Assembly: GCA_038153405.1 (NCBI GenBank)
Contig: JAYOYH010000032.1
Location: 1 to 54,916 of the forward strand
DNA length: 54,916 nucleotides
DNA from: Gemmatimonadota bacterium
GTDB lineage: Bacteria; Latescibacterota; UBA2968; UBA8231
Direction of reading: 5' to 3'
Shown here: positions 3 to 10,743 of the stretch, piece after piece
How the letters are laid out: each line of letters opens with the position of its first letter
Position numbering within the stretch: position 1 is the stretch's first letter
Program-made: the position numbers and the translations under genes
Notes under the pieces: generated by a model
Database searches by the model: none
What the model saw: only the letters and a program-made list of their open reading frames with translations
Told to the model about the DNA's origin: nothing

Positions 3-1553
3 CGCACGCACTACTCGCGTGCTCTGGGCGAAGGGCCGACGCTGTGCCGCCAGCTGCGCGACCAGGGCCGCGCGGGAGCCAACCTCATCATCAGCCGCTA
101 TATCGAACGTTCCGACGGCCAGCCGCCGACGGCGCGCGTGGCCAGCGGCCATTTCTATATCGACGCCGAGACCTATGCCCAGGCCCTGCAGCGCCACAAA
201 GGGCTGTCCGACGAGGAGGCGGCGCGGCGCGCAGCGACCGTACCAGCCAAGGGCATTCGCGTGGCTGCCACCTTCACGCGCCCCGTGCTGGCCGCACTGA
301 TCTACCCGTTTCACGGCGACCCGTCTTACGACGAGGGCCAGCTCGAAGCGTGCGGACTGCCCTACACAATCCAGTCGCTTTTTCACACCTGGACTACCTA
401 CGACAAGGCCAAATACCCAGACATCTTCCCGCCCTCATCCGGCGTGGAGATCCCCGCGGAGATCGACTGGCTCAGCCGCTATGGCGAGGGCGCCAGCGAG
501 GCACAGGTCAAAGAGTGGATCGAACGCGGCCGGGAAGGCACACCCTATCCGGGCTTGGCCGACTTTGCCCATCGCCACCGCATCGCCATCGTCAAGGATG
601 CAGCCGGTTCGGGCGGGCGCGGCATGAGCGTCTTTGTTCTGCGCCGCGTCGATGGCAGCCTCGACGAAGAGGCCATGCGCGAAGCGGTGGATTTCACCTA
701 CCAGATCGCGCTCAAAAACAACGTCTCCATTCAGGAGGTGGTCGTCTCCTCGCCGGAATACTGGGCGACAGAGGACTTTATGCGCTCGTTTGTCGATCGC
801 CAGATCGTCGATTGGGGCAGCTCCGTTGATCGCCAGCGCCGTCCGCGCACCAGCATCTACGGATCGCATCGCATCATCCTTTCGACCGACGCGCCCCAGG
901 CCGAAAACGCCGCCGACAAATGGCATATTTCGCACTGGATAACCCTCAACAGCAAACAGCTGGTGACCAACGTCGGACGCGGGGGCAATCTCGACTTATT
1001 TACGCCCGACATCGTGCAGGAAGCGCACCGCGAGACGCTCTTTGCCAAGCTGGCCGAGGCCGGAGCCCGCGTCATGGAGGCGCTAGCCGCCTACGAAACG
1101 CGCACGGCAGAGGCCTACCAGCGAGAGACCGGACGCCCGATCGGTCGAGATCTAGCCGGCGTATCCTATGGCAACCCGCGCTACATGATGCTCGACTTTC
1201 TCGTCGCCCCGGTCTTTGCCGAAGAGGGGGCACTAGTCGATATACGCCCACAGCACGACGAGCGCGGCCAGCGTTGCGGCTCGCAGTACGTGCTGCGCCG
1301 CGGCGACCAGACCTTTCCATCCCGCATTAGCGACTGGCGCGTCGTGCTGGTCGAGCCGAATATCGGCCTGGGCCTGTGGGATCGCGTCGCCCTGCGCGAG
1401 GCCGTCGTAGAAGAGCAGCGCGCCACCGCCGAGGGCCGCGCCGTCGACGCCGACGCCATCGGCCAACAGGCGCGCATCGTGCTATCCGACTTGACCAAGG
1501 CGGGCGAGGACTATTTAAACGCCTTGCGCCAAGCGGTCGATGCGCATCAGTAG
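3..1553 (+). CDS. ATP-grasp fold protein, divergent, 5'-truncated by the window edge
   Basis: Frame is open from position 3 (RTHYSRALGEG...) into ORF 138..1553. ATP-grasp-like motifs: IVKDAAGSGGRGMSVF, SIQEVV, TNVGRGG, MLDFL, LVEPNIGLG. Confidence 0.7.
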   Translation, partial: RTHYSRALGEGPTLCRQLRDQGRAGANLIISRYIERSDGQPPTARVASGHFYIDAETYAQALQRHKGLSDEEAARRAATVPAKGIRVAATFTRPVLAALIYPFHGDPSYDEGQLEACGLPYTIQSLFHTWTTYDKAKYPDIFPPSSGVEIPAEIDWLSRYGEGASEAQVKEWIERGREGTPYPGLADFAHRHRIAIVKDAAGSGGRGMSVFVLRRVDGSLDEEAMREAVDFTYQIALKNNVSIQEVVVSSPEYWATEDFMRSFVDRQIVDWGSSVDRQRRPRTSIYGSHRIILSTDAPQAENAADKWHISHWITLNSKQLVTNVGRGGNLDLFTPDIVQEAHRETLFAKLAEAGARVMEALAAYETRTAEAYQRETGRPIGRDLAGVSYGNPRYMMLDFLVAPVFAEEGALVDIRPQHDERGQRCGSQYVLRRGDQTFPSRISDWRVVLVEPNIGLGLWDRVALREAVVEEQRATAEGRAVDADAIGQQARIVLSDLTKAGEDYLNALRQAVDAHQ

Positions 1554-2955
1554 CCCCGAGGCGCGCGAATGCGCCGCGCGCGCCCTGGGACTTGATTCGG
1601 CCGCATCGCTGCGCGATGAAGAGCTCAGCGTCGCCTTTAAGTACGCCCTCGTCGATGCCCTCAGCGGTTGGGAGGAAGACGGCGAGAGCGCACTTGATGC
1701 GCTGTGTGCCGGATGGAATTGGTCGGCTTCAGAAAGCGCCAGTGCTGCGCGCCAAGCGCTCGCCTACTCGGCCCCATTTCGCCAGCGCCTCGTCGAATTG
1801 GCACGCGATGCCCGCATGAGCCAACCCCTAGCACCTGAGCTCTGCATAGCGCCGCATCCCCCGAGCGCCCAACGCCTGCGCCAGCTGCTGCCGGCCGCGC
1901 ACAACCACGCCGTTGTCTGCGCGGCGACCGCCCTCTTTACGCACGAGCTCTACCCGCTGGTCGTCGATGCCTTCAGCGCCGACTCGACCGCGCTGGGCCG
2001 GGCGCACTTCAACGTGCTCGGCGTGCACGTGGACTGGATCGACGACGGCAACTGTGCGCGCCGCGCCATTTTCTTCGATATGGAAAGCCAGCGCTTTGTC
2101 GAGGCCCCGCTCGACGCACCGCTGCCCATCGACAGCGCCCACTTCCTCAGCTTGGGCCGCGATGAGCAAGCCCTACACAGAGCGTGGTCGGCGCGCCTAT
2201 CGGTGCCCCAGGTCAACCCGTGGGATGGGGCCCGGCTGGCAGATGACAAGGCGGCGACGATAGTGGCCTGGGAACGCTGCGGTCTCGAGGTGCCGACCAC
2301 CTGCTCGGTTGCCGTGTGCGACGGCGACGCAGCCCGGCACTTTATTGAGCGGCATGCAGCCGTCGTCGCTAAACCAAACGACGCCAGCGAAGGGCGCGGT
2401 GTGGCCTACCTCGACAGCCCCTCCGACTGGATGGACTACGCAAGGACGCAGACCGCAAGGGGCGACGCGCTCTTGCAGGCCCGGCGAGACGGCGTTTTTT
2501 TTAGAGGTCACGGAGAGGACGCTGTGCGCACGCTGGCCCTGCGCATCAACGTCGGCACGTGCGGGGCGCGGCGCTGTGCCGACTCGCACTACGTCCAATT
2601 AGGAACCCACGACAGGTCGCCCGCTTCGCGCGGTCGGGGCGGCCGCATCGCCTCCGTTGCATCGCTGCGCGACCAGCTGGTCTATCGCCGCGATGGCGCT
2701 TGGCAGCCCATCGCGTTAGACCCCGTTTTCTGGCGCGAAACCATTGAGCACGCCGAGCGCGCCGCGGCCCTCTTTGCCGACCTGCTGCTGGTCGGCATCG
2801 ACCTCGTGATTGACGTAGTCGCAGGACGCCCCTGCGCCGTCCTCCTCGAGGCCAACCCCAGGCCGGCAGGCCTGTGCCACGCCCAGCGAATGGGCGATGG
2901 CAAAGCCGGCGTAAGCGAAACGCTGTGGAATGGCCTGCGCGCGCGCATAGCATAG
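1540..2955 (+). CDS. RimK-like ATP-grasp ligase with N-terminal extension
   Basis: QVNPWDGARLADDKAATIVAWERCGLEVPTT, VVAKPNDASEGRGV, LVGIDLV, LLEANPRPAG. Overlaps the upstream stop by 14 nt, suggesting translational coupling. Confidence 0.75.
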   Translation: MRISSPEARECAARALGLDSAASLRDEELSVAFKYALVDALSGWEEDGESALDALCAGWNWSASESASAARQALAYSAPFRQRLVELARDARMSQPLAPELCIAPHPPSAQRLRQLLPAAHNHAVVCAATALFTHELYPLVVDAFSADSTALGRAHFNVLGVHVDWIDDGNCARRAIFFDMESQRFVEAPLDAPLPIDSAHFLSLGRDEQALHRAWSARLSVPQVNPWDGARLADDKAATIVAWERCGLEVPTTCSVAVCDGDAARHFIERHAAVVAKPNDASEGRGVAYLDSPSDWMDYARTQTARGDALLQARRDGVFFRGHGEDAVRTLALRINVGTCGARRCADSHYVQLGTHDRSPASRGRGGRIASVASLRDQLVYRRDGAWQPIALDPVFWRETIEHAERAAALFADLLLVGIDLVIDVVAGRPCAVLLEANPRPAGLCHAQRMGDGKAGVSETLWNGLRARIA

Positions 2956-2994
2956 ACCGCACAAGTCGCCTTCTCACGGAAAACGAATACACCC

Positions 2995-4854
2995 ATGGAC
3001 GAATATCTCAAACGGCTAGCGGCGGTGGCACAATTGGACCAGGCAACCGAGCTAATCGATCGCATCGTAGAGCGCGTGCGCAGCGGTCAGACCAGCCGCG
3101 ACGAACGCCGCCAGTTTATCCGCCACCTATTGCTCAACGACGCCCTGCTCGGCCACCTGCAGACGCACGCGGCCATAGACCATCTCTTTTCGGCTATTGC
3201 GCCCGAGGCATGGACCCAGCTCTTCGCCGATGCCATCGAACGCGAACTGCCCAAGGTCACCGTCGACGCCGTCGACGCACAGGCCGATATAGACCACCGC
3301 CAGATCCTCCGCCTGCTGCCCGACAGCGATCCCAAAGTGCTCTTTGCCGCGATCAAGGCGCTCAGCACCTACATCGACAAGCAGCAAAATTCCAAGCGCC
3401 GCCTCCGCGGCATGCGCACCGCGCGCATTTTGGCCGATTTATACGGCCGCATGCAGACCGACGCCAGAGCTTGGCACCGGCGCTCTCCACCCTCTTGCAG
3501 CATCGATGGCGAACCCATTGCCAAGCTCAAGGAGAACGGGGCCTACGACCAGCTGGCCGAGGCGTACGAGACGCGCATCAACCAGCTACAGCGCATCGAC
3601 CTGCGGCGCAGCCTAGCGGCGCTGGGCGAAGAGCGCGACGCCGCACCGCGCATGGTTGAGGACGATTTCAGTCGCACCTTTCTCGTCGAATCGCCCCTGC
3701 GCATCGGCCTTTCTAGCGCCAACGCCTCCGACAACCACATGCGCAGCAAAGAACAGGGCGGCAAGACGCTCAACCTCGGCATCGACCTGCAGATGGAGGG
3801 AGAGGAAAGCGCCTCGCCGCCGCTGACGGTCAGAGCGCGACGTCTAGCCGAGCCCAAGCTCATTTTGCGCTCGCTGTCGATGGATTTCAAAGCCGATTTT
3901 GAGGCCAGCAACAAGGGAGACGACGCCACGCAGAGCAAGCTGTTTTTCGCCTATCGCCGCGGCGGCGACGAGGCATTGCGCTTAGTCAAGCAGGCGCTAG
4001 TACACGTCGGCATCGTCCGCGATAATTCGGACAATATCATCGACGACGTCGCGGCCTTTACCGGCGGCGGCGGCCTCGAATTGGTGACCAGCAGCAAGGT
4101 GCAGCAGGGTTCGGGCCTGGGCACGAGCAGCATCCTAGCCGCCGCCGTGCTCAAAATGCTCTACCGCCTTTCGGGCCACGCCTACGGCAAGGCCGAAAGC
4201 GAGTATCCCGGCCTCTACGACCAGAGCGTATTGCTCGAACAGAGCTTTGGCCTCAACAGCGGATGGCAGGATGCACGGGGCGCCTGCGGCGGTCCCTCGG
4301 CCATCAAGGCCTTCTACGCGCCGCCGACCGACGGCCTGCCGGCACCGGAGCGCCAATTTATCAGCGGCATCGACGAGTCGCTCTTTGCCGAGCGCGTCGT
4401 CCTCTTCGACACCGGCATCGCGCGCGGGGCGACGCGCGGGCTCAACGAGGTACTCGACGCCTATCTGACGCGCGACCCCAAACGCTACCCGGCCATTCGC
4501 GAGTCGCTCGAAATTCACGATCGCATGGTCGAGGCCCTGCGCCGAACCGACTACGCCCAGCTCGGGCAGCTGGCTACGCGCTACTGGCAGCTGCGCTGCA
4601 CCCTCGACCCGGGCGCCACCAGCGAAACGCTGCAGCATCTATTTGAGCATTCTTCAATGCGCGAGCTGAGCGAGGGCGGCCTCATTACCGGTGCCGGCGG
4701 CGGCGGCTTTGCCCTACTCATTGCACGAGAAGGCCGCGAAGGGGCACTGCGCCAGCAGCTCAGCGAGCTGCGCAAGATGGCAGCCTATGCCAAGAGCAGC
4801 GTCGTGTCGTACCGCCTTAACCGCACGGGCATCGCCCTGAGCGAGCGCGCGTAG
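2995..4854 (+). CDS. GHMP kinase (L-fucokinase/HddA-like) with an ~220-aa N-terminal domain of unknown function
   Basis: SPLRIGLS, VQQGSGLGTSSILAAA (GHMP P-loop), EQ...SGWQD, TGAGGGGF. Confidence 0.85.
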   Translation: MDEYLKRLAAVAQLDQATELIDRIVERVRSGQTSRDERRQFIRHLLLNDALLGHLQTHAAIDHLFSAIAPEAWTQLFADAIERELPKVTVDAVDAQADIDHRQILRLLPDSDPKVLFAAIKALSTYIDKQQNSKRRLRGMRTARILADLYGRMQTDARAWHRRSPPSCSIDGEPIAKLKENGAYDQLAEAYETRINQLQRIDLRRSLAALGEERDAAPRMVEDDFSRTFLVESPLRIGLSSANASDNHMRSKEQGGKTLNLGIDLQMEGEESASPPLTVRARRLAEPKLILRSLSMDFKADFEASNKGDDATQSKLFFAYRRGGDEALRLVKQALVHVGIVRDNSDNIIDDVAAFTGGGGLELVTSSKVQQGSGLGTSSILAAAVLKMLYRLSGHAYGKAESEYPGLYDQSVLLEQSFGLNSGWQDARGACGGPSAIKAFYAPPTDGLPAPERQFISGIDESLFAERVVLFDTGIARGATRGLNEVLDAYLTRDPKRYPAIRESLEIHDRMVEALRRTDYAQLGQLATRYWQLRCTLDPGATSETLQHLFEHSSMRELSEGGLITGAGGGGFALLIAREGREGALRQQLSELRKMAAYAKSSVVSYRLNRTGIALSERA

Positions 4855-6307: not shown

Positions 6308-7012
6308 TTAGGACGGGGGCGGCAGTTCAACGCCTTCCAACGCCGACAGACTGTGTCGTCCACTCGCGCTTCCGGCCCGACGCAGCGCGCGCAGATGAAC
6401 GCGTAAAAAGGCCGCTTCGCGCGGCGTATCGACGTCATACCAAGGCGGTAAGAGCGCCAGCGCCTGCTCGCCGATTTCCTGCAAGGTCTGTTCGAGCACA
6501 GCGCCCGAACTCCAGGCGATATGTGAAAATGGAGGACGCGCCGTGCGCTGCAGACCGACCAAGTAGTAGCCGCCGTCGGTGCTTGGCCCAAGCACAACCT
6601 GGTTTTCTTCGAGCAGTTCAAAGGCGCGCTCGATATATTCGCAGGGCAAGCTCGGGCTATCCGAACCGATCACCACGACGCGCTCGGCGCCGCGCCCTAT
6701 CGCCCCCTGCACGACGGCCTGCAGGCGCGCGCCGAGGTCGCCCTCGCCCTGTGCCACATAGGTAAAATCGCCGCAGCCTTTCAGCAGCCGTTGCAGTGCC
6801 TCTCGCCCATCGCGCGGCGCATAGGCTACGATTTTTTCGTCGGCGCGGACGGCCGCCAGCAGTTCGGCCGAGTCGCGCAGAAACGCAGCGTAGAGCGCAG
6901 CGGCGCATTCAGGGGTGCAGCACGGCTGCAGGCGCGTTTTCACTTGACCAGCCTCTGGTTTTTTGGCCAAGAGTGCAATGCAGCGCTTCTTCGGTAGCCT
7001 CCTGTTGTTCAC
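6308..7012 (-). CDS. DUF2064 / TIGR04282-family (CofC-like, GT-A fold) transferase
   Basis: AKKPEAGQVKTRL, QGEGDLGARL, IGSDSP, VLGPSTDGGYYLVG, WYDVDT. Start moved to GTG at 7012 (GAGGA upstream); the longer ORF-track version overlaps the opposite-strand gene. Confidence 0.85.
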   Translation of the reverse strand: MNNRRLPKKRCIALLAKKPEAGQVKTRLQPCCTPECAAALYAAFLRDSAELLAAVRADEKIVAYAPRDGREALQRLLKGCGDFTYVAQGEGDLGARLQAVVQGAIGRGAERVVVIGSDSPSLPCEYIERAFELLEENQVVLGPSTDGGYYLVGLQRTARPPFSHIAWSSGAVLEQTLQEIGEQALALLPPWYDVDTPREAAFLRVHLRALRRAGSASGRHSLSALEGVELPPPS

Positions 7013-7102: not shown

Positions 7103-8299
7103 ATGGCCCAGGTCAACATTATTCGCCACAACTCGATTGCCGTCTTTTCCAATCCCACCGAGGTGCTTATCCGCGACGACAACGGCGACGTCGTGCGCCT
7201 CGTCGAGCCATCCGGCAACGTCGGCACGCAGTATGCCAACGACGTCGGTTCCGAGTGGTTTGGCACCATCGAAAACCTCAACAAGGGCTTGACTACCTGC
7301 GGCGTGCACTGGTCCGACGTCTACAAAACAGACGTGCTGTGGACCACGCCCTCGGCCGACCGCGACGAGTGCGATGCGCGTAAAAACGATTTCAATAAGA
7401 TCTATGGCGCCCTGATCAACGCCGTTACCGGCGGCCCGCTGCGCTCCAATCGCATGGCGCGCTTCACGCATCAGGAAGGCTTTCCCGACCCAGCGGCCCT
7501 GTTTGAAGTGCAGATCAAAGCGGTCAAAGGCGAAAAGGTCACGATCGGCGGCGGCAAGGTGGACTACGGCACGTGGATCGACCACCAGCCCTCCGGCGCC
7601 TCCGTGCTGCACAAGAAGGGCGATCAGATGATTACGACGCTGGGCGACGACTTGGTCGAGGAGATGAACTTCATCTTAGAAGAGCAGTACGCCAAGCCCT
7701 TTGCCGAGCAGGGCGTCGACTTCCGCAAGCAGACGGTCTTTATGGAAATCCTCGTCGCCGTCGACGACGATCCGGCCAAGACCTGGGAGCGCATCGAAAT
7801 TACGCGCAAGGCCTTTGTCGACTACTTTGGCGACGACCTGCCGGCCGGCCTGATCTATCCGGTTTCGCGCATTCCCAACCTCGACAGCATTATCGAACCG
7901 CAGCCGCGCGTCGTCTCCGGCGAGGTCGATATCGTGCGCTCGGGGCAGGTCGAAGACGGCTTTAGCACCTGGACGGCCATCCGCCACCACGGCGTGCGCG
8001 AGGTCATGGTCAGCGCCGTAGCCGGCGACGATGCCGGCGCTCAGCTGAGCACTATTGATGCGCGCGTGAAAGAAGCCGGCGGCCAGGGTCTGAAAGAAAA
8101 CGGCATCTTCAACAACGCCTATATCGGCGCCGGGGCCGACACGGCGGCCAACCGCGCCGGGCTCGGCACGTTCAACGAGTCGTTCAGCGCCTACTACGCC
8201 GGCAGTGCACCGGCCGGACGCACGGCGCAGTTTGTCGGCGGCATCCAGCGCGAGGGGGCGGCCTACGGTATCTCCAACCGCTCGATTTTTGCCGAGTAA
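7103..8299 (+). CDS. Protein of three tandem divergent Rid/YjgF-like domains
   Basis: Unit 1: SGNVG..IENL..G..WSDVYKT..DFNKIY..PDPAALFEVQ. Unit 2: AFVDYFGDDLPAG..VSRIP..IIEPQ. Unit 3: FS..VMVSA..FNESFSAYY..PAGRT..V. RBS AGGGG. Confidence 0.6.
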   Translation: MAQVNIIRHNSIAVFSNPTEVLIRDDNGDVVRLVEPSGNVGTQYANDVGSEWFGTIENLNKGLTTCGVHWSDVYKTDVLWTTPSADRDECDARKNDFNKIYGALINAVTGGPLRSNRMARFTHQEGFPDPAALFEVQIKAVKGEKVTIGGGKVDYGTWIDHQPSGASVLHKKGDQMITTLGDDLVEEMNFILEEQYAKPFAEQGVDFRKQTVFMEILVAVDDDPAKTWERIEITRKAFVDYFGDDLPAGLIYPVSRIPNLDSIIEPQPRVVSGEVDIVRSGQVEDGFSTWTAIRHHGVREVMVSAVAGDDAGAQLSTIDARVKEAGGQGLKENGIFNNAYIGAGADTAANRAGLGTFNESFSAYYAGSAPAGRTAQFVGGIQREGAAYGISNRSIFAE

Positions 8300-8312
8300 G
8301 GTGCGTATCCCC

Positions 8313-8807
8313 TTGTTAAGTTCAGAAAAGATCATTGACGCCCTTGAGGAACAGGGCGTTACGCACGTAGTCGGCGTACCCGACAATGGTTCGCGCGCGC
8401 TCTTTGAGCGCCTGTGGGCCCATCCGCAGATCGAAGTCATTCTTACCAGCCGCGAAGGCGAGGCCTTTGGCCTCGCCTCCGGGCTTTATCTGGGCGGCGC
8501 CACTCCGCTCGTGCTGATCCAAAACACGGGTTTTTTCGAAGCGGGTGACGGCTTTCGCGGCACCGCCTACAATATGGGCATACCCCTCGTCATGATGGTC
8601 GGCTACCGCGGCTACAAGACCATGGAACCCGGTGCCCCGCGCGTCGATACGGCGGCGACGTTTTTTGAGCCGACGCTCAAGGCCTGGGACATTCCCTACA
8701 CCGCCATGCACGAAGACGGCGATATCGCACAGATTCCGGCCGCCTTCGCCAAGGCACGGGAAACCTCTCTGCCCACCGCCGTGCTTATTGTCCCGGAGAC
8801 CGTCTGA
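8313..8807 (+). CDS. ThDP-dependent decarboxylase alpha subunit (ComD / phosphonopyruvate decarboxylase N-half-like)
   Basis: VVGVPDN, SREGEAFGLASGLYLGG, LIQNTG, VGYRG. Start TTG 8313 after TAAGGT (alternative GTG 8301). Confidence 0.85.
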   Translation: MLSSEKIIDALEEQGVTHVVGVPDNGSRALFERLWAHPQIEVILTSREGEAFGLASGLYLGGATPLVLIQNTGFFEAGDGFRGTAYNMGIPLVMMVGYRGYKTMEPGAPRVDTAATFFEPTLKAWDIPYTAMHEDGDIAQIPAAFAKARETSLPTAVLIVPETV

Positions 8808-8808
8808 T

Positions 8809-9372
8809 ATGCTCGACAAATACGAATGCCTGAAGAAGCTAGCGGCGCGACGCACGGACGAAGTCGTCGTCACCACCATGAGCGTGGCCATGCCCTGGGC
8901 CGAGCTATCCGACGGGCCGCTCGACTTTGCCCACGTCGAGAGCGCCATGGGCCACGCGGCCGACTTCGCGCTCGGCCTGGCCATCGCCCAACCCGAACGC
9001 CGCGTCTTTGTCATCAACGGCGACGGCTCGACGCTGATGTGTTTGGGCACGCTGGTCACGCTGGCGCAGCGCCCGGCACCCAACCTGACGATGGTCATCA
9101 CCGAGAACGGCACCTACGAAGTGACGGGCAACCAGCCGGTGCCCGGAGCCGGCCAGATCGACTACGAGCAAATCTGCCGCGGTGCCGGTATCCAAAACGT
9201 CTACACGATCGAAGATGCCGACCAGTTTGACGCGCATTTGGAGGCGCATTTCACCGGCGCGGGACCACAGGTCTTTATCTGGAAGATCGCACAGGCCAGC
9301 GAACCGGTGCCCAAACCCAAGCGTCCCATCCGCGAGCGAGCGCACAACCTGCGCCAAGCGCTAGTCGGCTAG
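8809..9372 (+). CDS. ThDP-dependent decarboxylase beta subunit (ComE-like)
   Basis: SAMGHAADFALGLA, NGDGSTLM...ENGTYEVTGNQP (GDG...N ThDP motif). ATG lies 1 nt after the alpha-subunit stop. Confidence 0.85.
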   Translation: MLDKYECLKKLAARRTDEVVVTTMSVAMPWAELSDGPLDFAHVESAMGHAADFALGLAIAQPERRVFVINGDGSTLMCLGTLVTLAQRPAPNLTMVITENGTYEVTGNQPVPGAGQIDYEQICRGAGIQNVYTIEDADQFDAHLEAHFTGAGPQVFIWKIAQASEPVPKPKRPIRERAHNLRQALVG

Positions 9373-9402
9373 GATCGCCAGCCCCAACATAGGAGATACG
9401 CG

Positions 9403-10647
9403 ATGCAACTGCCCCGCATGGCCAAAGTAAAGCAGCACTTTGCCGCCACCGCGCTCGACGATGTCGAAGCCAGCGTGCGCCAAACGCTGGCCGCAGCCGA
9501 TTTGGCTGGATCCATCGCTGCGGGGCAGCGCATTGCCGTTTCCTCTGGCAGCCGCGGCATCGCCAATATTCCCCTCATTACCCGCACCGTCGTCGACTGC
9601 GTCAAGGAGGCGGGTGGACAGCCCTTTCTGCTGCCGGCCATGGGCAGCCACGGCGGCGCCAACCCCGAGGGACAGAAAGAGGTGTTGGCCAGCTACGGCA
9701 TCACGCTGGAGGCCATGGGCTGTCCGGTGGAAGCGACGATGGACGTGGTCGAAGTAGGGCGACTGGCCGACGATACGCCGGTGCTGCTCAACCGCCTGGC
9801 ATGGGAGGCCGATGGCGTTGTCCTGATCAACCGCATCAAGCCGCACACTTCGTTCCGAGGGCGCTTTGAGAGCGGCCTGATGAAAATGATGACCATTGGC
9901 TTGGGCAGCCATAAGGGAGCGACTATAGCCCATGCGCAGGGCGCCGAAGGCCTGGCGCGCCTCATCCCCGCCTGGGGCGCTGAGATTCTGGCCAAGGCAC
10001 CGATTTGCATGGGGCTGGCCATCGTCGAAAATGCCTACGAGGAAACGCTGCGCGTCGAAGCACTGCGCCCGGACCAATTCGAGAGCCGCGAGCCCCACCT
10101 GCTCGAAGAGGCCCGCGCCGCCATGCCACGCATTATGGTGCAGGGCGTCGATCTGCTGATTGTCGAGGAGATGGGCAAGAATATCTCCGGCACCGGCATG
10201 GACACCAACGTCGTCGGCCGCATGCTGCTGCCCGGCGTCAAGGAGCCCGAATCGCCCGGCGTGGCACGCATCGTCGCCCTCGGCCTAACGGAAGAGAGCC
10301 ACGGCAACGCCAACGGCGTCGGCCTAGCCGATATCATTACGCGCGATCTCTACGAATCCATCGACTTTCAGGCGACCTACGCCAACGTCTTTACCACGAC
10401 CTTCCTCAACCGCGCCAATATACCCGTGATCATGGACAGCGATCGCCAGGCCATCGAGGCAGCCATAGACGTGCAGCGTTTAGAGCATCCCGAGCGCGCG
10501 CGCGTTGTGCGCATTAAAAACACGCTCGACATCGGCGAAATAGAGCTCTCCGAAACGCTGCTGCGCGAGATTGCCAACCACCCCGATCTGCAGCAGGTCG
10601 GCGAGCTGATGGACATGCGCTTCGACGAACAGGGCCGCCTACGCTAG
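9403..10647 (+). CDS. LarA-superfamily (lactate racemase N-terminal-like, DUF2088/DUF362-type) protein
   Basis: GSRGIANI, PAMGSHGGA, NRIKPHT, ESGLMKM..IGLG, GKNISGTGMDTNVVGR, SHGNANGVG; RBS AGGAG. Confidence 0.8.
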   Translation: MQLPRMAKVKQHFAATALDDVEASVRQTLAAADLAGSIAAGQRIAVSSGSRGIANIPLITRTVVDCVKEAGGQPFLLPAMGSHGGANPEGQKEVLASYGITLEAMGCPVEATMDVVEVGRLADDTPVLLNRLAWEADGVVLINRIKPHTSFRGRFESGLMKMMTIGLGSHKGATIAHAQGAEGLARLIPAWGAEILAKAPICMGLAIVENAYEETLRVEALRPDQFESREPHLLEEARAAMPRIMVQGVDLLIVEEMGKNISGTGMDTNVVGRMLLPGVKEPESPGVARIVALGLTEESHGNANGVGLADIITRDLYESIDFQATYANVFTTTFLNRANIPVIMDSDRQAIEAAIDVQRLEHPERARVVRIKNTLDIGEIELSETLLREIANHPDLQQVGELMDMRFDEQGRLR

Positions 10648-10689
10648 ACGCCCCCGGAGTTCCGATCAGCTCCCAACGCTACCGCGCAC

Positions 10690-10723
10690 AAAAAAACCCG
10701 CTGGCCTCTCGGCCGCGGGTTTT
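10690..10723. terminator. Probable bidirectional intrinsic terminator
   Basis: A7-CCCGCTGGCC-TCTC-GGCCGCGGG-TTTT between convergent genes. Confidence 0.75.
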
Positions 10724-10743
10724 GGCGTTTAGAGCACCCTATT

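Follow-up and report, generated by a model that had tools for sequence, protein, structure and literature searches.

A conserved Latescibacterota gene cluster of a fused Rid-fold protein, a split thiamine diphosphate enzyme and a group-22 LarA homologue, three units gained and lost separately

Results

The gene cluster

The contig JAYOYH010000032.1 of a Gemmatimonadota bacterium (GTDB lineage Latescibacterota; assembly GCA_038153405.1) was analysed over its whole 54,916 nucleotides (nt), here called the window. Four genes at 7103–10647 encode a protein of three Rid-fold domains (OrfA), the alpha and beta subunits of a split thiamine diphosphate (ThDP) enzyme and a LarA-superfamily homologue (LarAH). 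An earlier note, made from the letters alone, took them for a candidate undescribed pathway. We find a real cluster whose three units are orphans or variants within known superfamilies, while a dedicated new pathway is unproven. The separate loss of its units, a synteny control and a cleft-by-cleft reading of OrfA are new here.

The genes and flanking features are as follows.
6308–6976, − strand: divergent TIGR04282/DUF2064 glycosyltransferase-like gene (TIGR04282 180.5 bits, cut-off 134)
7103–8299, + strand: OrfA, 398 amino acids, ATG start
8313–8807, + strand: ThDP alpha subunit with the pyrimidine-binding (PYR) domain, ComD/RhiE-like, 164 amino acids, TTG start behind TAAGG
8809–9372, + strand: ThDP beta subunit with the pyrophosphate-binding (PP) domain, ComE/RhiF-like, 187 amino acids
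9403–10647, + strand: LarAH, LarA-superfamily nickel-pincer enzyme of group 22, 414 amino acids
10690–10723, no strand assigned: GC-rich hairpin with A7 and T4 on its flanks

The four genes are all on the + strand with intergenic gaps of 13, 1 and 30 nt, exactly as first described, and form a conserved cluster that is likely co-transcribed. Their GC content of 0.61–0.64 and third-position GC of 0.72–0.82 resemble those of the host's fabI (0.62 and 0.80), so they show no sign of recent import. The fabI gene lies upstream of OrfA, beyond the divergent TIGR04282 gene.

Separate gain and loss of the three units

A unit was counted as present at E 1e-10 for OrfA, at least 49% identity for beta and at least 56% for LarAH. 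The partial beta genes of genomes G116 and G095 and the frameshifted LarAH gene of G108 were included. Related genomes do not count as independent and many are fragmentary; the distribution is therefore read as patterns and not as statistics.

All three units occur in 60 of the 76 genomes of one Latescibacterota family, f1. The four genes stand in order at 48 of 80 OrfA loci, 3 more being interrupted by contig ends, and the gaps stay tight at 61–100% identity. The synteny is thus sound, but the single dedicated module of the earlier note is not supported, since the units are separable, a birA-like gene lies inside the cluster in several genera and a control gene is as syntenic as the cluster genes. 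That control, the TIGR04282 gene outside the proposed module, adjoins OrfA in 50/50 informative loci. Hence, synteny inside f1 is plain inheritance.

The units were gained and lost separately. Seven of the eight possible presence patterns are found within f1. With both flanks visible, the same locus holds alpha and beta alone (G097–099, G103–105), alpha, beta and LarAH (G107, G108) or OrfA and LarAH (G093, G100, G154, G155). Outside f1, none of the 56 genomes of the class carries all three. OrfA stands alone in 30/31 genomes of family f4, where its neighbours are a nucleotidyltransferase, a GHMP kinase and an inositol monophosphatase. In family f3, 14/22 genomes have the LarAH orthologue alone, next to amidohydrolases, and in family f2 the decarboxylase stands alone in 2/3 genomes.

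Twenty-seven of the 80 OrfA loci have downstream room and no alpha gene. A pyridoxal phosphate (PLP)-dependent class I/II aminotransferase precedes OrfA in 21/80 loci, those of a second OrfA lineage, and close beta was found in 0/5 of the aminotransferase-OrfA genomes tested. Passages of PMC4433059 report aminotransferase-type neighbours for Rid genes.

In several genera, a gene for a birA-like biotin ligase separates OrfA from alpha or stands alone before alpha (L044:6563-7705; L076, L079, G147, G151, G103–105). This is probably the ancestral order. The rpoN gene is within 400 nt in 20/46 loci, and the adjacency of birA and rpoN has been lost more often than that of the trio.

These patterns bear on a simple explanation by co-location. 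Three unrelated units, with birA, would have come to lie in the housekeeping stretch between the TIGR04282 gene and rpoN of the f1 ancestor, with a promoter in common and no metabolite. The fully syntenic control, the partial combinations at one locus, the birA-like gene within the cluster and the solitary occurrences outside f1 all speak for it. So does the finding that 0/80 wider decarboxylase loci (best 80 of 477) carry OrfA or LarAH, 36 of these loci having room on both sides. However, all three families work at carbon 2 of carboxylic acids, which is rare for a random trio. Moreover, the gaps stay tight down to 61% identity, and the adjacency of birA and rpoN was lost more often than the trio. 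We regard co-location alone as possible but doubtful.

OrfA as a diverged Rid-fold pseudo-trimer

The predicted OrfA model has a mean predicted local distance difference test (pLDDT) score of 86 and a predicted template modelling (pTM) score of 0.89. Its thirds, residues 5–143, 145–278 and 276–397, each align to a single Rid chain (Z 9.3–11.3, root mean square deviation (rmsd) 1.9–3.2), which bears out the triple-Rid description at the model level. The best whole-chain structural matches are chorismatases (Z 20.8–21.2, rmsd 3.1–3.3 across 266–272 residues, 10–13% identity), and the Foldseek matches also include cyanuric acid hydrolase and barbiturase. The model confirms OrfA, at its own level, as a single-chain, chorismatase-shaped pseudo-trimer with Rid/YjgF domains at about 1–144, 145–275 and 276–398. 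It is likely an imine or enamine hydrolase.

Sequence searches return much less. OrfA has no Pfam or NCBIfam match at an E limit of 0.05, PF01042 and TIGR00004 included. Its single-sequence and profile searches against solved structures gave nothing significant, the profile finding weak Rid matches in the PDB at E 0.1 at best. Against 1.84 billion representatives, the profile made 64 matches, one a full-length cluster and the rest fragments, so no full-length relative appeared beyond one 50%-identity cluster. An Atlas search returned two clusters from Latescibacterota, together with a weak lead to PF01042 (0.86).

In RidA, one chain contributes Asn and Arg to the active site and the next chain contributes Tyr, Gly, Asn, Pro and Glu, with Arg105 essential, according to passages of PMC12218379 and PMC4433059. 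We transferred this register to OrfA by MAFFT and HMMER motif alignments against four Rid proteins, working from sequences and not coordinates. Residues were counted in 121 aligned rows, the query and 120 of its 189 matches. Domain 1 has N98/R117 as well as F15, G38, N58, P128 and E135. Domain 2 has G249 in place of the Arg and retains G165, P258 and E265. Domain 3 retains N358/R373 and has G389 in place of the Glu. R117 and R373 occur in 120/121 rows, E135 and E265 in 121/121, and F15, G38, P128 and N358 are at or near invariance.

By parsimony, the simplest pairing would give the cleft between domains 3 and 1 each of the seven residues of the RidA site, or a close equivalent. The same pairing, which we infer from the register, would leave the cleft between domains 1 and 2 partial and that between domains 2 and 3 dead.

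Residues K/R139, R269 and R393 occupy the same place in the last strand of all three domains and are basic in 121/121 rows. They may line a central cationic cavity. Cyclic amide hydrolases are also found among the Foldseek matches.

The chorismatase shape raises the alternative that OrfA is a chorismatase-type enol-ether hydrolase, releasing a 2-oxo acid such as pyruvate from an enolpyruvyl compound for the ThDP pair. The top whole-chain matches fit this, but at such low identity covalent Rid trimers in general would match the fold. In the RidA register OrfA has Gly389, as against the catalytic Glu334 near the C-terminus of Hyg5 (a passage of PMC7170507). No aromatic or secondary-metabolite neighbours were seen at the OrfA loci. 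We hold this alternative to be very unlikely.

Replacement of canonical RidA by OrfA was also considered. A strong RidA (at least 140 bits) is found in 14/102 OrfA-bearing against 20/30 OrfA-lacking genomes of the class. Inside f1 the counts are 4/68 against 0/8, and kin are not independent, so the counts speak neither for nor against replacement.

The split ThDP pair

The alpha subunit matches PF02776 (TPP_enzyme_N, E 4e-12) and the beta subunit PF02775 (TPP_enzyme_C, E 2.5e-19). Alpha E48 is invariant and aligned to a Glu of RhiE; beta G71-D72-G73 and N100 are invariant too. We take E48 to be the activating Glu and the GDG...N residues to be the cofactor motif. The assignment to a split ThDP enzyme therefore stands. 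The nearest solved relatives are RhiE (9IZ3_A) for alpha and RhiF (9IZ3_B) for beta, 9IZ3 being RhiEF in a passage of PMC12141560.

The named families do not admit the pair. Alpha scores 76.6 bits by TIGR03845 (cut-off 147.95), beta 99.7 bits by TIGR03846 (cut-off 221.5), and the pair 55.8 and 93.7 bits by the Ppd model TIGR03297 (cut-off 312.5). In a quick tree of 49 rows, with one ComDE row, two Ppd rows and 26 of 80 metagenome loci offered, the pair clusters with Latescibacterota and metagenome homologues (44–81%), Gemmatirosa (42%) and a Bradyrhizobium plasmid pair (35%). It is apart from Leisingera ComDE (27%) and the two fused Ppd (24–25%). Long branches meet and the deep order is unsure, so the tree suggests a clade of its own outside ComDE and Ppd.

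The earlier note had offered sulfolactate/sulfopyruvate-like compounds as an example substrate and cited phosphonopyruvate decarboxylase. In such a route, sulfolactate racemase would feed sulfopyruvate decarboxylase, with OrfA removing imines from cysteate deamination. ComDE and Ppd are indeed the best named families for the subunits, RhiEF is the best solved relative, and many holders of the genes are marine by database records. However, the pair falls under all ComDE and Ppd cut-offs into its separate clade. In the 93% complete host genome, no Xsc passes the cut-off (the top score is 282 against 676 bits) and PepM has no match, in a search that did not extend to comABC or SauS-type routes. 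The contexts of group-22 LarA homologues, given below, are of sugar acids, and the units are separable. This substrate proposal thus finds no support, and an organosulfonate or phosphonate route is quite unlikely.

The pair is a free two-gene unit elsewhere: among the best 80 of 477 wider metagenome loci with beta, 72 carry alpha. In G037 and, by resemblance, in G039, both of family f2, the second gene upstream encodes a D-2-hydroxyacid dehydrogenase. The 35% Bradyrhizobium pair is flanked by a DAO-family oxidoreductase, an amidase and an aldehyde dehydrogenase.

That plasmid locus (L260, NZ_CP022220.1 195080-205613), with FAD oxidoreductases and an ABC transporter besides the amidase and the aldehyde dehydrogenase, offers a compact catabolic cluster that can be tested in strains already in culture. 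In other Latescibacterota, fused Ppd-like genes adjoin genes that look PEP-mutase-like by sequence (G102:C2, L131; G009:C7, L132). They are separate from the split pair.

The clade is widespread, with about 940 metagenome stretches estimated. Some sources annotate it as sulfopyruvate decarboxylase despite the scores below cut-off, which can mislead sulfur-cycle inventories.

The LarA homologue of group 22

LarAH scores 537 bits by NF052515 (cut-off 400) and also matches Lar_N, so its superfamily assignment is firm. Residues R51, H83, H148, K161 and H177 are invariant in 16/16 sequences and match R75, H108, H174, K184 and H200 in the 11 of 20 group-22 rows compared from PMC7583248. The LarA histidines are the subject of a passage in PMC12611868. 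The model aligns with LarA/Mar2 at E 6e-12, and all Foldseek matches listed with E <1e-8 are of the LarA family (TM 0.45–0.57). Single-sequence and profile searches against solved structures gave nothing significant, the profile giving only spurious repeat-protein matches.

Placed among the characterised set, LarAH falls in group 22, which Desguin et al. 2020 list as of 'unknown function' in a passage of PMC7583248. The published alignment there has group 22 without LarA's D72 and K298. The available main text of PMC11770544 mentions neither 'group 22' nor 'sulfolactate'. As the earlier note said, larBCE genes are absent from the cluster; the host carries larB, larC and larE over cut-off on contigs C10, C8 and C29, respectively. 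LarAH is likely a racemase or epimerase acting at C2 of a 2-hydroxy or sugar acid.

Group 22 is near-universal in the class (129/132 genomes). Its neighbours given in PMC7583248, in part, are short-chain dehydrogenase/reductase (SDR), dehydratase, tripartite ATP-independent periplasmic (TRAP) transporter and sugar kinase. In cultured strains, group-22 genes have sugar-acid neighbours in 4/4 plasmid regions taken from 118 records: UxaA/altronate and arabinonate dehydratases, 2-keto-3-deoxy-6-phosphogluconate (KDPG) aldolase and four-carbon acid-sugar kinase. A paralogue (43–48%) follows glcD/E-type FAD-linked oxidases in 3/3 loci of the second OrfA lineage, and an Fe-dehydrogenase precedes the LarAH paralogue in families f4 and f2 and in genus g9. 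Such contexts suggest sugar acids and a generic oxidation of 2-hydroxy acids.

The host has a second group-22 LarA homologue, 44% identical (G000:C81:14007-15251, L082), followed by a DSD1-like PLP enzyme, a Zn-dehydrogenase and an HpcH aldolase. Paralogues of this type are found across the class and in 5/5 genomes of the other OrfA-bearing lineage. A conserved link between LarAH and DSD1 was not borne out: of 12 paralogue loci retrieved, only 2 show it. In a genome without OrfA, the LarAH orthologue lies in three frames (G108:C1:3459647-3460877, L138), and decay and assembly error are both possible.

An amino-acid route would make the three steps linked: the group-22 enzyme acts on a 2-amino (sugar) acid via an imine, OrfA hydrolyses the imine and the ThDP pair decarboxylates. 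OrfA and LarAH do remain adjacent in the 4 genomes where alpha and beta are deleted. The DSD1-like gene follows both the host's second group-22 gene and the same 2/12 paralogues. D72 and K298 are missing from group 22 (a passage of PMC7583248), and a nickel-pincer ornithine cyclodeaminase is mentioned in a passage of PMC13524815. However, both flanks can survive one central deletion with no functional link, and outside f1 OrfA and the LarAH orthologue are mostly apart. The characterised LarA homologues in the available parts of PMC7583248 and PMC11770544 all use 2-hydroxy acids. This route is the least probable of the readings considered here.

Flanks of the cluster

The earlier note closed the cluster with a terminator at 10690–10723. 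The hairpin itself is well supported: region 10680–10735 folds at −26.6 kcal/mol (z −2.97), with 2 of 200 shuffles equally good. Its ownership by the cluster is less so: the T-run is longer on the − strand (7 nt) than on the + strand (4 nt), and the hairpin thus fits the converging rpoN gene at least equally well. A consensus terminator scan did not list it. It is probably a two-way terminator common to the cluster and rpoN.

In genus g12 (L006–L032), the gap between LarAH and rpoN is often filled by variable inserted genes, some of which look defence- or mobile-like by sequence. This suggests that the terminator region downstream of LarAH is an insertion hotspot in that genus. Near the start of the window, a conserved run at 138–4854 lies upstream of an NYN gene and fabI and encodes an unclassified 471-amino-acid protein, an ATP-grasp protein and a fucokinase-like GHMP kinase. 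This kinase cluster is present in 42/80 OrfA loci.

Discussion

All three enzymes probably act at carbon 2 of small acids. Our preferred but tentative reading, to which we give somewhat less than an even chance, is that the cluster is a loose 2-oxo-acid funnel of three separately inherited enzymes and not one obligatory pathway. We infer the three activities and any metabolite they would share.

OrfA would bind the carboxylate of an imino or enamino acid at its Arg105-type site and hydrolyse it to a 2-oxo acid and ammonia. LarAH, with the nickel-pincer cofactor made in trans by larBCE, would invert the configuration at C2 of a 2-hydroxy acid, which is most likely a sugar acid. The product would then pass to a stereospecific dehydrogenase or dehydratase from another locus, yielding a 2-oxo acid. 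The ThDP pair would then decarboxylate the 2-oxo acid to an aldehyde. The neighbourhoods elsewhere, with the D-2-hydroxyacid dehydrogenase in f2 and the DAO-family oxidoreductase, amidase and aldehyde dehydrogenase in Bradyrhizobium, fit each link. The host genome has 17 D-2-hydroxyacid dehydrogenase matches and 4 FAD-oxidase matches.

Several results weigh against the funnel. Separate loss, the seven patterns within f1, the missing trio outside it and equally conserved housekeeping neighbours are equally compatible with no shared metabolite. The cluster has no dehydrogenase, dehydratase, amine oxidase, aldehyde dehydrogenase or transporter, so every link needs a partner in trans. As for OrfA, hhalign of its thirds against four RidA sequences and against one another was not significant, and the query carries Leu246 where 111/121 rows have Arg. 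The host has four other Rid-family genes, at least three of them with the Arg motif, so the host can do without OrfA as a general deaminase. A single RNA run (0.12 of words) gave five contigs of 151–200 nt, none joining genes, which is neutral in itself.

A tighter version is a linked catabolic route, in which the group-22 enzyme oxidises or epimerises a 2-amino or 2-hydroxy (sugar) acid, OrfA hydrolyses the imine and the ThDP pair decarboxylates. It is unlikely. If true, it would bring amino acids within the reach of LarA chemistry and supply three orphan families with their first substrates.

The cluster itself matters less than it appeared, because its units are separable. All three are orphans that a cheap first assay could probe. 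LarA group 22 is a family without a known reaction, and OrfA is a lineage-restricted covalent Rid trimer of diverged clefts that may represent an intermediate form linking homotrimeric RidA and chorismatase.

The logic of the funnel is familiar. The mandelate pathway runs from a racemase through a dehydrogenase to a ThDP decarboxylase, and the Ehrlich-type routes run from deamination through a 2-oxo acid to an aldehyde. The racemase and decarboxylase families differ here, however, and the cluster lacks the dehydrogenases. Searches of the open-access literature, from which subscription journals are mostly absent, found no paper on the combination, in line with the earlier note's failure to match a described pathway.

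Covalent 3x-RidA proteins such as EF_0115 are already described in a passage of PMC4433059 and resemble OrfA in having three Rid domains in one chain. Hence, the fusion itself is not new, and it is the divergence and asymmetry of OrfA that stand out. By register, OrfA keeps the Arg105-type residue in two domains, but its domains are unequal and so strongly diverged that PF01042 and NCBIfam models miss them, and one cleft apparently lacks both Arg and Glu. The chorismatases FkbO and Hyg5 (PDB 4BPS, 5A3K, 5AG3) share the single-chain pseudo-trimer at Z ~21, but have 10–13% identity to OrfA and differ in gene context and, by register, in the C-terminal Glu, where OrfA has Gly.

The ThDP pair shares the two-gene PYR and PP layout with ComDE, a sulfopyruvate decarboxylase, and RhiEF, a phosphonopyruvate decarboxylase like Ppd, and has the cofactor motifs, 9IZ3 being its best PDB match. 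It differs from ComDE, RhiEF and Ppd by its 24–27% identity, its scores below cut-off and its apparently separate clade. That clade includes Gemmatirosa and metagenome members in which the pair stands as a free two-gene unit. LarAH agrees with LarA group 22 in the family cut-off, the R/H/H/K/H residues, the LarA fold and the larBCE genes of the genome. A ThDP pair or a Rid protein, however, is not among the group-22 neighbours listed in the available part of PMC7583248.

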